Virus record (IMG/VR): IMGVR_UViG_3300045988_074321
Span: 1-64,000 of that record
Length of the DNA: 64,000 nt
Strand: one strand, 5' to 3'
DNA from: a virus
A program made the translations under genes and the position numbers. Positions 9,629-27,761 of this stretch are shown here, piece by piece; position 1 is the first letter of the stretch; each line of letters starts with the position of its first letter. A model generated the notes under the pieces. That model was given only the letters and a program-made list of their open reading frames with translations. It did no database searches and had not been told where the DNA came from.

Positions 9629-9717
9629 GGGATTGTAACCGGTAATTGGTAGCCGCGCAGACTGTAAATCTGCTCTCTTTTGAGACTGGAGGTTCGAGTC
9701 CTCCCAATCCCACACTA
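9629..9717 (+). tRNA. tRNA-Tyr (GTA), type II, second copy
   Basis: anticodon arm gcaga-CTGTAAA-tctgc identical to E. coli tRNA-Tyr; acceptor gggattg/caatccc; T-arm ggagg-TTCGAGT-cctcc; D-arm irregular. Confidence 0.6.
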
Positions 9718-16323: not shown

Positions 16324-16368
16324 GGACCTATAGCTCAGCCAGGTCAGAGCAGCTAATTATGAGTCAGA
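16324..16368 (+). other. 5' fragment of a tRNA gene (acceptor ggaccta + canonical D-arm TAGCTCAGCCAGGTCAGAGC) lacking an adjacent 3' half
   Basis: 7/7 complement (taggtcc) plus T-arm found 730 bp downstream at 17062..17103. Confidence 0.5.
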
Positions 16369-16369
16369 T

Positions 16370-16446
16370 AGGGACGTATCCCCTCAAGCTTATACCTTGT
16401 AGAAAGGGTAGTTGGTCGCACGTGGGTTCAAACCCCACCGTCCCTA
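16370..16446 (+). tRNA. tRNA-like gene with perfect acceptor (agggacg/cgtccct) and T-arm (gtggg-TTCAAAC-cccac) but aberrant D/anticodon arms (9-10 nt anticodon loop TTGTAGAAAG)
   Basis: hand-folding; anticodon not assignable. Confidence 0.4.
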
Positions 16447-16519
16447 CAACTTCTGGATTGAATTTTTAATTTTGCACCAAAACATTTGGTATTATGATTA
16501 TTTTCATATATATTTGTAT

Positions 16520-17068
16520 ATGAATTACAATGATTATAATACACAGAAGTTAAGAGGTTTAAAGCGCAAATTAGAGCTAGTAAAATCTCGTGGTGGTAAA
16601 TGTGAACTATGCGGCTATGATAGAAACATAGCTGTTCTAGAATTTCACCATATTAATCCAGATGAGAAAGAGTTTCAGTTAGATATGAGACATTTATCTA
16701 ATACAAGTCTAGAAAGGCTTAAAGAGGAAGCAGATAAATGTCAACTTCTATGCGCTAATTGTCATAGAGAAGTACATAACCCTCACTTGGGAATGGACGA
16801 AGTTGAAGATTTAGTTAATACTGAAGCTAAAGATAAGACGTCTTTTGAAAATATGACTGGGTCTGTATGCCCAGTATGCGGCAAAAGATTTCCTAAATCT
16901 AAGGGTAAGATATACTGTTCTAAGGAATGCAGAGATGCTGATAAACATTATCCTTCTCTAGAAGAAGTAAATGAGCAGTACGAAATACTTAAGAATTGGG
17001 AGAAAGTTGCTCAGCATTTTGGATTAACTCGCAGAGTTATTCAAGGAATAAGAAAGAAAGACTCATAA
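16520..17068 (+). CDS. HNH homing endonuclease
   Basis: ELCGYDRNIAVLEFHHINPDEKE ... LLCANCHREVH; first ATG at 16520 (track ORF starts inside tRNA-like sequence). Confidence 0.8.
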   Translation: MNYNDYNTQKLRGLKRKLELVKSRGGKCELCGYDRNIAVLEFHHINPDEKEFQLDMRHLSNTSLERLKEEADKCQLLCANCHREVHNPHLGMDEVEDLVNTEAKDKTSFENMTGSVCPVCGKRFPKSKGKIYCSKECRDADKHYPSLEEVNEQYEILKNWEKVAQHFGLTRRVIQGIRKKDS

Positions 17069-17103
17069 TCAGAAGGTCGGGGGTTCAAAGCCCTCTAGGT
17101 CCA
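17062..17103 (+). other. 3' fragment of a CAU-anticodon tRNA gene (loop CTCATAA, stem tcaga, variable aggtc, T-arm ggggg-TTCAAAG-ccctc, acceptor taggtcc)
   Basis: no matching 5' anticodon stem upstream; acceptor complements 16324 fragment. Confidence 0.5.
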
Positions 17104-17108
17104 CACTT

Positions 17109-17177
17109 GAGCCTACCTAATTGGAATAAAGGTCTAGACGCGTTGGCTAGATTTGGGTTCAAGTCCCAATAGGTTCA
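17109..17177 (+). tRNA. tRNA-like gene, 69 nt, 7-bp anticodon stem with 9-nt loop ACGCGTTGG, no variable region
   Basis: acceptor gagccta/taggttc, T-arm ttggg-TTCAAGT-cccaa; anticodon not assignable. Confidence 0.4.
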
Positions 17178-17315
17178 CATAATCAGATACGGAGAAAGTA
17201 GTACAACCGAAAAGACATATCAAGTAATATAGGTTGCCACGAGTATAGTCGGCTTATATTGCGCTCCATGGAACGGGTATGAGGTCTGATTTCAAATAAT
17301 TAAAAAATAAAACTT

Positions 17316-25528: not shown

Positions 25529-26090
25529 GGGCCTACTTGGATTTGACAGGCGATTACAAATTATAAGGACGTGTAGAGCGCAATCTCTTTAAACGAAGAA
25601 AAAACAATAAATGCTACTTATAGCGAAGTAAGAATGGCAGCCTAAGCTGCTGGCTTGTTGGTAAACACTATTAACTAAGTCGGGTTACGGGAGAGACCTA
25701 GAAACAGAAGAGGTTGAGTATATTGATATAATGGAGAGCTAGGCTCTAATCCTAGTAATATGCTCTTAATCAGAACACTCTAAGAGTTAGTAAGACTGAA
25801 TCTCCTACGTCATAAAACAGATGGAAGATGTGTTCCGTGAGATGTGACGAATCTCTAAAGTATCATCCCGTTCTCCAACGTAAATGGAGTGGTGGAACGT
25901 TGACTTCGGTCAGCCCTATAGTTTGGTAGCTTGTAGATAAGCATCTAGAGAAATACTTAGTATGGACTCTTGTAAGACTTATAAAACTACCTAAATGCTA
26001 GAACTCCCTAGCTGATATAATAAAAATGAGACGCACGTTATCCTTGTAACGAGGGTTGTTTGGACACGGGTTCGACTCCCGTTAGGTCCA
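25529..26090 (+). ncRNA. ssrA: tmRNA (SsrA); tag reading frame 25613..25645 encoding ATYSEVRMAA-stop
   Basis: 5' GGGCCTACTTGGATTTGACAGG parallels E. coli ssrA 5' end; resume GCT preceded by A-rich AAAAAACAATAAAT; tag ends AA+TAA; 3' GGACACGGGTTCGACTCCCGTTAGGTCCA T-arm/acceptor pairing with 5' gggccta; 560-bp ORF-free interval. Confidence 0.7.
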
Positions 26091-26096
26091 CATAAT

Positions 26097-26170
26097 AGGG
26101 CTATAGCTCAACTGGTTAGAGCACCACACTGATAATGTGGAGGTTATCAGTTCAAGTCTGATTAGCCCTA
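26097..26170 (+). tRNA. tRNA-Ile (GAT)
   Basis: acceptor agggcta/tagccct, D gctc/gagc, anticodon stem ccaca/tgtgg, loop CTGATAA, T-arm atcag-TTCAAGT-ctgat. Confidence 0.85.
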
Positions 26171-26247
26171 CAAAACCGCCAGCTCACGCGGTATATAAGA
26201 AAGGATTGCCGGACTCGCAGGTGTAACGAGATAAATACCTGCATTTT

Positions 26248-26286
26248 CGAGGCTGTGGTGTAATGGCTTGCATATCACACTGTCAT
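26248..26286 (+). other. 5' half of a second tRNA-Asp(GTC) gene (acceptor cgaggct, D-arm, anticodon 5' stem tcaca + loop CTGTCA)
   Basis: pairs perfectly with 3' half at 26943..26979 (tgtga anticodon 3' stem; agtctcg acceptor). Confidence 0.6.
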
Positions 26287-26307
26287 TAAAATTAATTAAA
26301 CTTATCT

Positions 26308-26859
26308 GTGAATCGAGAACAATCTCTTAAATTGTATTATGAGAATCCTAACCACTGTAAGGAATGTGGTAAGGTAATCGAAGTACTAGATAATCAGAGG
26401 GTCGCAGATGTGAGGAAGAAACAGTTTTGTAGTCATTCGTGTGCTGCTTCTTACAATAATAGAGGTAGGATAAAGCACGATGAAAACAAGATATGTCCTA
26501 GATGTGGTAAACCTAAGCATAAAGATTCAGAAATGTGTCGTAGTTGCTGGGAAGAACTTAATGGAATTGGTAACAAAACATTAGGTTATTATACATCTGG
26601 GCAGAAGTACTTATCATCTAAATGTCAAGAAATAAGGACTAATGCTCGTAGAGTATTAGAAAGTTCCGAACGTGAGAAAGTATGTCAATATTGTCATAAT
26701 CATGAATTTGATGCAATACTTGAAGTACATCATCTTAAAGGAATATTAGAATTTGACGAAGACACTCTTATTAAGGAGATTAACAACGAGAATAATTTAG
26801 TATGGTTATGTCCGAATCACCATATTATGTTAGAGAAGGGTTTAATTAGTCTGGAGTAA
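26308..26859 (+). CDS. HNH homing endonuclease (GTG start)
   Basis: EVHHLKG ... LVWLCPNHH plus CxxC zinc knuckles. Confidence 0.8.
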   Translation: MNREQSLKLYYENPNHCKECGKVIEVLDNQRVADVRKKQFCSHSCAASYNNRGRIKHDENKICPRCGKPKHKDSEMCRSCWEELNGIGNKTLGYYTSGQKYLSSKCQEIRTNARRVLESSEREKVCQYCHNHEFDAILEVHHLKGILEFDEDTLIKEINNENNLVWLCPNHHIMLEKGLISLE

Positions 26860-26870
26860 TCCAGTTACAC

Positions 26871-26942
26871 CGAGGGTTAGTTCAGTGGTAGAATAGTGCA
26901 CTGTCTATGCGAAGGTCACCAGTTCGAGTCTGGTACTCTCGG
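26871..26942 (+). tRNA. tRNA-Asp (GTC), intact
   Basis: acceptor cgagggt/actctcg, D-arm TAGTTCAGTGGTAGAATA as in E. coli tRNA-Asp, loop CTGTCTA, T-arm accag-TTCGAGT-ctggt. Confidence 0.8.
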
Positions 26943-26979
26943 CACTGTGAAGGTTGGGGTTCGAATCCCCCAGTCTCGG
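26943..26979 (+). other. 3' half of split tRNA-Asp gene (anticodon 3' stem tgtga, variable aggt, T-arm gggg-TTCGAAT-cccc, acceptor agtctcg)
   Basis: complements 26248..26286 fragment. Confidence 0.6.
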
Positions 26980-26986
26980 CATTTAT

Positions 26987-27059
26987 TCCCCTGTAGTTTA
27001 GTTGGTTAGAACACGTGATTTGTAATCTCGAGACCTCGGTTCGAATCCGAGTGGGGGAT
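26987..27059 (+). tRNA. tRNA-Thr (TGT)
   Basis: acceptor tcccctg/tggggga, D gttt/gaac, anticodon stem cgtga/tctcg (central mismatch), loop TTTGTAA, T-arm ctcgg-TTCGAAT-ccgag. Confidence 0.65.
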
Positions 27060-27086
27060 CTTAACCATTAAATTAGATTAATTTTT

Positions 27087-27761
27087 ATGACTAGATTAGA
27101 AAAGTATTTAGTAGCAACTGCTACTGAGATTATCGAAGCGGAAACAACTGTTTCTCGCTACTTTGTCATTGGAAACGTCAAAGTTAGAGTATCAGACCAT
27201 TTAAGTAAAATGAGTGATGCAGACTTACAAGTGATTATTCCATTGAACGGAGGGACTAAGTATATAGTTACTGTTAAGGATAGTCCTGGAAAATTTCTTG
27301 TATGGAATGCAACTCAAATAAAAGACTTTATTCCTTCATTGCAGATTATTAAGGGCTTGAAGGAAGGAGTACAACTTAAGCCAAAACCTAAAGACTCTGC
27401 AGTTCAGAAGATTCAGCTAGCATTAAATAATAGTAATACCGATGGAGGTTCGTTAACGTTCGATGGTACTATTATCGAGTCTAGATTGAAAGAAAAGCAA
27501 CTTACCTCTAAACAGCGGGAAGTTTTCAGGAGAACTAAATCTACTTGGGATATTTCTCAGATTGGAACATTACCCAGTATGATTAAAGTAGATTTGGGAT
27601 TGTCAAATGGTTCTGTAAACGAAGATGTGCAGATATTTCTAACTTGTACATCTTTAACCTACAAAGAAATTCTGAACATTTATAAAATAATAGTTGTTGA
27701 TAACCATATGGTTCCAACTATTAAACTGTTGCAAGAAGCTTATAGCTTAATTGTGCAGTAG
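27087..27761 (+). CDS. hypothetical protein
   Basis: ORF track. Confidence 0.55.
   Translation: MTRLEKYLVATATEIIEAETTVSRYFVIGNVKVRVSDHLSKMSDADLQVIIPLNGGTKYIVTVKDSPGKFLVWNATQIKDFIPSLQIIKGLKEGVQLKPKPKDSAVQKIQLALNNSNTDGGSLTFDGTIIESRLKEKQLTSKQREVFRRTKSTWDISQIGTLPSMIKVDLGLSNGSVNEDVQIFLTCTSLTYKEILNIYKIIVVDNHMVPTIKLLQEAYSLIVQ

Follow-up and report, generated by a model that had tools for sequence, protein, structure and literature searches.

The DNA analysed here is a 64,000-nucleotide stretch of a viral record (IMG/VR record IMGVR_UViG_3300045988_074321, positions 1 to 64,000; hereafter the window), in which a tRNA-Asp gene is split in its anticodon loop by an insert carrying an HNH endonuclease gene and a second, complete tRNA-Asp. 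The split gene lies in a long tRNA array, with 26 genes called by ARAGORN and 28 Rfam tRNA matches, together with a transfer-messenger RNA (tmRNA) and a RAGATH-14 RNA. A 1.5-kb query around the split gene gave a 98% match to GenBank MT836666 ("Bacteriophage sp.", from human faeces) and also matched many IMG/VR contigs of 97–192 kb. The source of the window is a human-gut crAss-like phage.

Organization of the split tRNA-Asp locus

The 5' remnant of the host tRNA-Asp (Asp1) was read directly from the sequence at 26248..26285, on the plus strand, like all parts of this locus. It covers tRNA positions 1–37, with the acceptor strand CGAGGCT, the D arm, the anticodon stem strand TCACA and the loop residues CTGTCA. 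The 3' remnant (26945..26979, positions 38–73) begins with C38 and continues with the stem strand TGTGA, the variable loop AGGT, the T arm (TGGGG, TTCGAAT, CCCCC), the acceptor strand AGTCTCG and G73. The first-pass annotation had recognized both halves but placed their borders at 26286 and 26943; T26286 lies outside the tRNA, and 26943–26944 is an extra CA. The insert thus measures 659 bp (26286..26944) rather than the 656 bp originally given. It consists of an AT-rich leader (26286..26307, TTAAAATTAATTAAACTTATCT), presumed to be the translation-initiation region, the HNH gene (26308..26859, GTG start codon, 183 amino acids [aa]), an 11-nucleotide (nt) spacer, the nested intact tRNA-Asp(GTC) (Asp2; 26871..26942) and a terminal CA.

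Comparison of the occupied window with the empty sites of two related loci, L004 and L018 (see below), revealed a 2-bp direct repeat at the insert borders, with a left CA at 26284..26285 and a right CA at 26943–26944, where the intact gene has a single CA. Since CA is found at both borders, the insertion point is ambiguous (35/36 to 37/38), and the insert can equally be described as a 657-bp sequence (26286–26942), the last base of which is G73 of the nested tRNA, with the CA repeat on either side. This repeat may be either a 2-bp target duplication or junction microhomology. CA/CA borders were also found in three diverged cassettes (L038, L068 and L070), the leaders of which begin with TTAAAATTAG, TTAAAATTAA and TTAAAAGAAA, respectively, and conserve the TTAAAA..ATTAA part of the leader.

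When 26248–26285 and 26945–26979 were joined, ARAGORN identified a tRNA-Asp(gtc) with the loop CTGTCAC, in agreement with the initial reading of the halves. The rejoined gene is base-for-base identical to the uninterrupted tRNA-Asp genes of L004, L010 and L018, all of which are called by ARAGORN; the L004 gene scored 54.7 bits with the Rfam tRNA model (RF00005). This match between rejoined halves and intact genes is far beyond chance. The junction of the rejoined tRNA reads AUCACACUGUCACUGUGAAGG, and the corresponding stretch of the nested tRNA reads GUGCACUGUCUAUGCGA. The split gene was not reported by the intron mode of ARAGORN over the whole window, and a promoter and terminator scan around the locus was uninformative.

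The HNH endonuclease gene and its relatives

The assignment of 26308..26859 as an HNH gene was borne out by profile searches. The open reading frame (ORF) gave 22.0 bits with Pfam HNH_2 (a marginal pass, the cutoff being 21), 16.1 bits with HNH (under its cutoff of 21.4) and Zn_ribbon matches, and it matched PHROG HNH families with E values of about 3e-4. The protein has two zinc ribbons in its N-terminal half and, towards the C-terminus, an HNH (beta-beta-alpha-Me) nuclease domain (aa 126–182), with a visible CQYC...EVHH...NENN...CPNHH motif that is conserved in its homologues. There were 175 of these in a large protein collection, several with a precomputed PF13391 assignment. A sequence search of the PDB yielded weak zinc-ribbon matches only, with no informative solved relative, and tblastn against annotated phage genomes retrieved only distant HNH genes (26–33% identity) in unrelated phages. 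Relative to the ORFs of L026, L068 and L070, the window ORF showed 11/10/57, 29/13/83 and 66/43/88 differences at codon positions 1/2/3, respectively, a pattern indicative of purifying selection across cassettes differing by up to 40% in protein sequence.

The same nested architecture was found for homologues with 81% (L068), 72% (L038) and 60% (L070) aa identity, with a 5' half ending in CTGTCA followed by the TTAAAA leader, the HNH gene, a nested tRNA-Asp (loop CTGTCTA, ending in ...CTCGG) and a 3' half starting from CAC. A homologue with 65% identity (L069) belongs to a cassette within another type of tRNA-Asp, which is intact in L089 and L114. The homologue in L067 (71%, with a different N-terminus) is free-standing, 8 nt upstream of an ordinary tRNA-Asp, and that in L073 (56%, on a 375-kb contig) lies 73 nt downstream of a tRNA-Asp with a CTGTCTA loop. 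This distribution points to an HNH family linked to tRNA-Asp genes in three different arrangements. Truncated or frameshifted copies of the HNH gene were found in L031, L036 and L016.

A different nuclease gene was observed in L035 (IMGVR_UViG_3300045988_058553), where a GIY-YIG-like gene (GYIYCITN...YVGKT motif, in-frame TAG codons) is located about 300–1000 nt upstream of the nested tRNA-Asp. It replaces the tRNA-Ile, a 74-nt element described below, the 5' half of the tRNA-Asp and most of the HNH gene, apparently a case of one homing nuclease overwriting another at a shared hot spot.

The nested tRNA-Asp

The complete tRNA-Asp first proposed at 26871..26942 was called as tRNA-Asp(gtc) by ARAGORN and scored 53.4 bits with RF00005 (gathering score 29). 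It has the acceptor stem CGAGGGU/ACUCUCG, the discriminator G73 and the anticodon loop CUGUCUA (U37, A38), and is the sole intact tRNA-Asp in the window. Asp2 is intact in all occupied loci; the anticodon GUC, G73 and the loop CTGTCTA are invariant across cassettes. Compensatory pairs were identified between the diverged cassettes at acceptor positions 6-67 and 7-66 and in the T stem (ACCAG/CTGGT to ATCGG/CCGAT), and other substitutions keep the pairing (U28 to C giving C28-G42; A49 to G giving G-U). These changes are a sign of selection on the structure of the nested tRNA.

A pyrimidine at position 37 is very unusual in tRNAs, and C38 is an identity element for aspartyl-tRNA synthetase in model systems. 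The CUGUCUA-loop tRNA-Asp forms a recurrent, distinct class in large phages, the usual form having a purine at position 37 and C38. Members of this class are nested in cassettes or free-standing beside a normal CTGTCAC tRNA-Asp (L089, L114), and were also found in L073 and L074. Immunity to the nuclease and resistance to host anticodon nucleases are possibilities for the retention of the position-37 pyrimidine.

Empty and occupied alleles

Two probes taken from the host tRNA-Asp, a 22-mer of its 5' fragment and a 24-mer of its 3' fragment, were matched exactly against IMG/VR. The two halves were contiguous in three loci (L004, L018 and L010) and 659 bp apart in 23 loci besides the window and MT836666, with one variant each at 649 bp and 663 bp. 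For the tRNA variant of the window, the occupied allele is present in about 30 contigs from several datasets, at the identical position, versus three intact genes (two syntenic with the window, one in another background). An assembly artefact or chimera was ruled out, because MT836666 and about 30 independent IMG/VR contigs share the same structure.

The three intact genes are empty sites, and they allow the comparison with related phages lacking the HNH gene that had been suggested in the first-pass annotation. L004 and L018 are syntenic with the window, with the tmRNA, the tRNA-Ile and the 74-nt element upstream and a tRNA-Thr and the same ORF downstream, and differ from its context only by having one uninterrupted tRNA-Asp. 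Their tRNA arrays (about 14 kb) contain only the host-type tRNA-Asp, with no nested-type tRNA and no HNH gene, whereas the nested tRNA is the only intact tRNA-Asp in occupied loci. The exchange of tRNAs is therefore one-for-one. L010 (empty) and L021 (occupied) share their 5' flank and therefore constitute a second allele pair in a different background. A simple tandem duplication was excluded, since the two tRNAs share the acceptor stem only and the empty sites hold a single intact gene.

The insert is 96–100% identical to that of the window in most occupied loci and 86.9% identical in L026. Clustering of 150-nt flanks defined at least five unrelated 5' contexts and at least five 3' contexts, and the similarity starts and ends exactly where the tRNA gene does. 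In L003, L014 and L025, whose 3' flanks are diverged homologues, these flanks are 73–80% identical, as against 99–100% for the insert; other flanks were unalignable. Judging from these comparisons, the insert has spread horizontally.

Fate of the host tRNA halves

Decay was assessed in 26 close loci, which were picked via the HNH protein and are therefore an unbiased sample for the tRNA halves. In four to five of the 26, the host tRNA can no longer be rebuilt; the nested tRNA is disrupted in none. Two independent deletions (L031 and L036) extend from an upstream ORF into the HNH gene and have removed the 5' half, which is also lost in L035. A 6-nt deletion affects the T loop of the 3' half in L037, the 3' half of L021 was truncated through recombination with the T loop of the next tRNA, and the anticodon loop of the host tRNA is mutilated in L069.

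The host anticodon stems differ between cassettes and yet remain complementary (TCACA/TGTGA, CCACA/TGTGG and CCTCC/GGAGG), with matching changes in the acceptor stem. These compensatory differences between L038, L068 and the window hinted at selection on the halves. However, a degenerate scan for intact genes of the host-type tRNA-Asp family (69 loci, 37 distinct sequences) showed that the L038 host sequence occurs, exact and uninterrupted, in L102 and L107 (seven further genes are near-identical), and the L068 host sequence likewise in L089, L094, L109, L119 and L125. Selection on the halves was rejected as the source of these differences: every host variant that was invaded also occurs in other contigs in an identical, unbroken form, and the matching halves therefore require no post-insertion selection. 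The cassette repeatedly entered intact genes that had already diverged, and the halves are therefore young rather than maintained.

Proposed origin and mechanism of the cassette

We consider it likely, with a probability of roughly 0.8, that a free-standing homing-endonuclease gene of the HNH type, travelling with a tRNA-Asp of its own, has inserted in the anticodon loop of a resident tRNA-Asp(GUC). The split tRNA-Asp would then be a pair of young pseudogene fragments that is not respliced. The first-pass annotation had left open whether the locus was a homing-endonuclease cassette in a tRNA gene or a tRNA intron with a nested tRNA. The empty and occupied alleles of near-isogenic genomes, the near-identity of the insert between unrelated flanks and the tRNA-Asp-linked relatives of the HNH gene strongly favour the former; the latter is not supported, for the reasons given below.

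The cassette could have spread as follows. In a co-infected cell, the HNH enzyme would cut or nick a resident-type tRNA-Asp gene that is still intact, at the anticodon loop or close to it; a cut staggered by 2 nt might explain the CA repeat. Repair from a cassette-bearing genome, with the tRNA halves and shared flanks as homology arms, would copy in the HNH gene and the nested tRNA, as the population pattern suggests, and the insertion would destroy both the target site and the host tRNA. The invaded tRNAs consistently have a CTGTCAC loop, as opposed to the nested CTGTCTA, and the nested isoacceptor is presumed to escape cleavage through its different anticodon arm (loop CUGUCUA rather than CUGUCAC, different stems) and D loop. 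Both the HNH gene and Asp2 are presumably expressed. With the nested tRNA, presumably charged with Asp despite U37 and A38, assuming the tRNA-Asp function, invasion would cost the phage little. After fixation, the host halves and the HNH gene would be free to decay, and such decay is directly visible in the loci described above.

Several points weigh against this interpretation. Halves are disrupted more often than nested tRNAs, but the events are few and the contrast is suggestive without being statistically strong. Most occupied loci keep perfect halves, which fits a recent invasion but would also fit selection on the halves. The 2-bp CA microhomology is the only hint at the insert borders as to how the first insertion occurred. 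The target site of the HNH enzyme and its present ability to cut are presumptive, and the loop difference alone cannot explain the immunity of the nested tRNA, because the L069 cassette lies inside a tRNA-Asp with a CTGTCTA loop. Finally, U37 and A38 could limit the efficiency of Asp2 as a tRNA-Asp.

A second cassette in a tRNA(CAT) gene

The window contains a second gene of this kind. A tRNA(CAT) gene (16324–17103) is split into a 5' part (16324–16354) and a 3' part (17060–17103), with the break in the anticodon stem (29/30). Within the 705-bp insert are an inverted 12-nt copy of the anticodon stem-loop, a tRNA-like element and a second HNH gene (16520–17068; PHROG HNH, 92 bits), the stop codon of which falls within the anticodon loop of the tRNA(CAT) itself. 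The tRNA-like element (16370–16446) lacks a D arm, scored 31.7 bits with the Rfam tRNA model and has the loop CUUAUAC and a UAU anticodon; its identity and function are uncertain. Brute-force joining of the split tRNA(CAT) gave many spurious ARAGORN calls, and the gene was resolved only by means of the intact copy in L004. The tRNA(CAT) is intact in L004, L018, L032, L094, L109, L114 and L119, and occupied in the window, L012 and L134. L032 is occupied at tRNA-Asp and empty at tRNA(CAT), so that neither cassette depends on the other for its movement.

The two HNH proteins of the window are not close relatives and have opposite domain orders, which indicates that the design of an inserted HNH gene plus tRNA recurs in one window with unrelated nucleases. 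We can only speculate that the UAU element is a replacement, should the host tRNA(CAT) be a lysidine-dependent tRNA-Ile2. A further tRNA-like sequence (17108–17178, GAGCCTA...GGGTTCAAGTCCCAATAGGTTCA) follows the split tRNA(CAT), with an acceptor stem GAGCCTA/TAGGTTC and a good T arm; it was called by neither ARAGORN nor Rfam, and is conserved in L004 (1195–1268).

Alternative explanations

The intron reading left open by the first-pass annotation would make the insert a self-splicing group I intron with a homing endonuclease ORF and an incidental nested tRNA, the host tRNA-Asp being restored at the RNA level. Such introns are known in the anticodon loops of bacterial tRNAs, including position 35/36 of tRNA-Asp and tRNA-Asn in Patescibacteria, and some carry HNH ORFs (PMC13011429); most occupied loci keep perfect halves. 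The 35/36 border placement also fits the group I rule, with a 5' exon ending in U (26283) and an insert ending in G (26942). However, the rule holds for one of the three equivalent border placements, for which the chance expectation is not small, and the coincidence provides weak support for an intron. No group I fold was found over the insert: a permissive Rfam scan of 25900–27200 (E<=10) gave tRNAs, the 3' end of the tmRNA and noise, with no intron, ribozyme or other family in the insert, and no intron family reached its gathering threshold across the window. Nor is there room for a core, since the ORF (552) and the nested tRNA (72) leave only 35 nt (22 + 11 + 2) of the 659, and the shortest reported tRNA group I introns are 184 nt long (PMC13011429). 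A conserved RNA core overlapping the ORF is contradicted by divergence that falls mainly at third codon positions, up to 45% of which differ (83 of 184 aligned codons, L068). Loss of the 5' half or breakage of the 3' half is tolerated in genomes that retain an intact nested tRNA, and the second cassette, which interrupts an anticodon stem and has a small inverted duplication, does not resemble an intron. We therefore regard a group I intron as extremely improbable.

A split tRNA could also be made functional by proteins, with RNase P and RNase Z acting at the nested tRNA, another nuclease making the remaining cut, and ligation or assembly of a two-piece tRNA, by analogy with the split or bulge-helix-bulge (BHB) intron tRNAs of archaea or with T4 anticodon-loop repair. 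Position 37/38, one of the possible borders here, is the canonical site of archaeal and eukaryal tRNA introns; the insert ends at the nested G73, such that 3' processing would make C36 the 5'-terminal residue of the host 3' half; and the tRNA-like element of the second cassette begins 15 nt after the 5' fragment. Nothing, however, defines the other cut, a partial check of the 10 largest ORFs of the window revealed no RNA ligase, and to our knowledge no tRNA splicing endonuclease occurs in bacteria or their phages. Several lineages have lost or damaged the halves while the nested tRNA stays, and the retention of GUC and G73 in all cassettes is needed by a replacement tRNA and not by a mere processing signal. 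Protein-dependent processing thus seems very unlikely. A third possibility is that tRNA genes are general recombination hot spots and that the insert spread passively, the HNH gene being a decaying passenger or having another role (packaging, competition). Recombination between conserved tRNA genes could account for mosaic flanks with breakpoints at tRNA borders, an event of this type occurred between the T loops of neighbouring tRNAs in L021, and the HNH copies of L031, L036 and L016 are broken. This does not sit well with the purifying selection evident in the HNH ORF, even between the most diverged cassettes, or with homologues in unrelated phages that consistently lie next to tRNA-Asp in three arrangements; moreover, conservation is far higher in the insert than in homologous flanks, and the occupied allele (about 30 contigs) greatly outnumbers the empty one (three intact genes). 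We judge passive spread to be unlikely, and retain the HNH homing cassette with its own tRNA-Asp as our interpretation of the locus.

Other features of the tRNA array

A tmRNA (25529–26093) is located just upstream of the tRNA-Ile; it scored 62.6 bits with RF00023 (gathering score 47), was not called by ARAGORN and is conserved in related contigs. MT836666 and L004 have 83 extra nt between this gene and the tRNA-Ile. The 74-nt element between the tRNA-Ile and the split tRNA-Asp (26174–26247) is 97% identical to positions 3001–3074 of L002 (NC_055898 cr115_1), where it lies upstream of a tRNA-Leu(TAA) in the otherwise unrelated crAss-like phage Birpovirus cr115_1. Within the element, a pair of hairpins (CCGC..GCGG and GCAGGTGT..ACCTGC) precedes TTTT; the fold z-score is only -1.6, and MT836666 has a 22-nt deletion in this stretch. 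The element could represent a terminator or a small RNA element of a mobile or regulatory nature.

Two tRNAs have suppressor-type anticodons, CTA and TTA (1939–2011 on the minus strand and 5196–5266 on the plus strand, respectively), suggesting stop-codon recoding in this phage. The RAGATH-14 RNA (4963–5169, 156.6 bits) is directly upstream of the TTA tRNA. A pair of tRNA-Tyr(GTA) genes (8933–9017, Rfam 31.3 bits; 9629–9713, 47.4 bits) flanks an interval of about 610 nt in which there is an ORF of 123 aa that matches no Pfam family; this pair may correspond to another duplication or replacement event in the array.

Significance and comparison with known systems

Homing endonuclease genes usually avoid harming their hosts by residing in self-splicing introns or inteins, by using intergenic sites, or by splitting proteins that reassemble. 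The cassette appears to represent a fourth solution, for an RNA gene, in which the element breaks its target and brings a spare. In this way, selfish nucleases can bring about turnover in the tRNA sets of the crAss-like phages that abound in the human gut and, if the cleavage site is confirmed, the cassette would offer an HNH enzyme naturally specific for a tRNA gene. For annotation, tRNA halves beside an HNH gene in phage tRNA arrays would best be read as fossils of invasion rather than introns, and the nested tRNA as the functional gene; the split gene itself was silently missed by standard tools.

More tentatively, and with odds that we place well below even, the two cassettes may exemplify an undescribed "cut-and-replace" class, in which different HNH families, each with a substitute tRNA inside the destroyed gene, rewrite the phage tRNA set with altered anticodon arms. 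A U37/A38 tRNA-Asp would replace an A37/C38 one and possibly, at the second locus, a tRNA-like RNA with a UAU anticodon would replace a CAU tRNA that perhaps needs lysidine. If this were true, the altered loops would confer immunity to the element's own nuclease, possibly with a changed sensitivity to host anticodon nucleases or modification enzymes, and a selfish element would also alter phage translation or the evasion of defence.

Zeta crAss-like phages are reported to be rich in homing endonuclease genes that vary between near-identical genomes, in a description that does not mention split tRNAs (PMC12386605). We found no earlier description of a nested HNH gene and substitute tRNA in the literature searched, the coverage of which is incomplete. 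Among natural systems, T4 SegB comes closest. This free-standing homing enzyme of the GIY-YIG family is encoded in a tRNA cluster, recognizes a motif of the T-psi-C stem-loop and drives the preferential inheritance of itself and neighbouring tRNA genes into related phages lacking it (PMC2330249). As with SegB, the nuclease gene of the cassette lies among phage tRNA genes, outside any intron or intein, and its product would recognize tRNA-gene DNA. SegB, however, is located between genes, and co-conversion replaces the region, whereas in the cassette the gene of an HNH nuclease with zinc ribbons and a full-length substitute tRNA interrupt the target gene itself, the halves of which are left as flanking fossils.

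Group I introns with homing endonuclease ORFs occur in the tRNA-fMet and tRNA-Arg of cyanobacteria and at position 35/36 of tRNA-Asn and tRNA-Asp in Patescibacteria (PMC13011429). The cassette shares with them its location in the anticodon loop (possibly at 35/36), an HNH ORF and presence/absence polymorphism, but differs in having no ribozyme match, a second tRNA instead of splicing, and halves that decay. In the Aeromonas phage Aeh1, mobE reportedly splits nrdA into parts whose protein fragments reassemble and stay functional. Like this gene, for which related work is available (PMC2790892), the HNH gene of the cassette is free-standing and splits its host gene; here, however, the tRNA fragments appear to be dead, and function is supplied by the nested replacement.

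The split and BHB-intron tRNAs of archaea need a splicing endonuclease and an RtcB-type ligase, and their halves are maintained by selection. The genes concerned have been reviewed (PMC3400036), and resemble the cassette in their interruption of the anticodon loop, which is compatible with 37/38 in our case; the halves flanking the cassette, by contrast, have been lost in some genomes, and splicing machinery is not evident. In its logic, the cassette matches the engineered "home-and-rescue" drive design, of which it would be a natural counterpart, found twice in one phage with unrelated nucleases. The HomeR drives are CRISPR constructs engineered for diploid insects (PMC7968924). Both systems disrupt a needed gene by nuclease homing and carry a rescue version, the resistance of which to cleavage is presumed for the cassette. 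The cassette, however, is a natural HNH element of a phage, and rescue would come from a diverged tRNA paralogue instead of a recoded copy.

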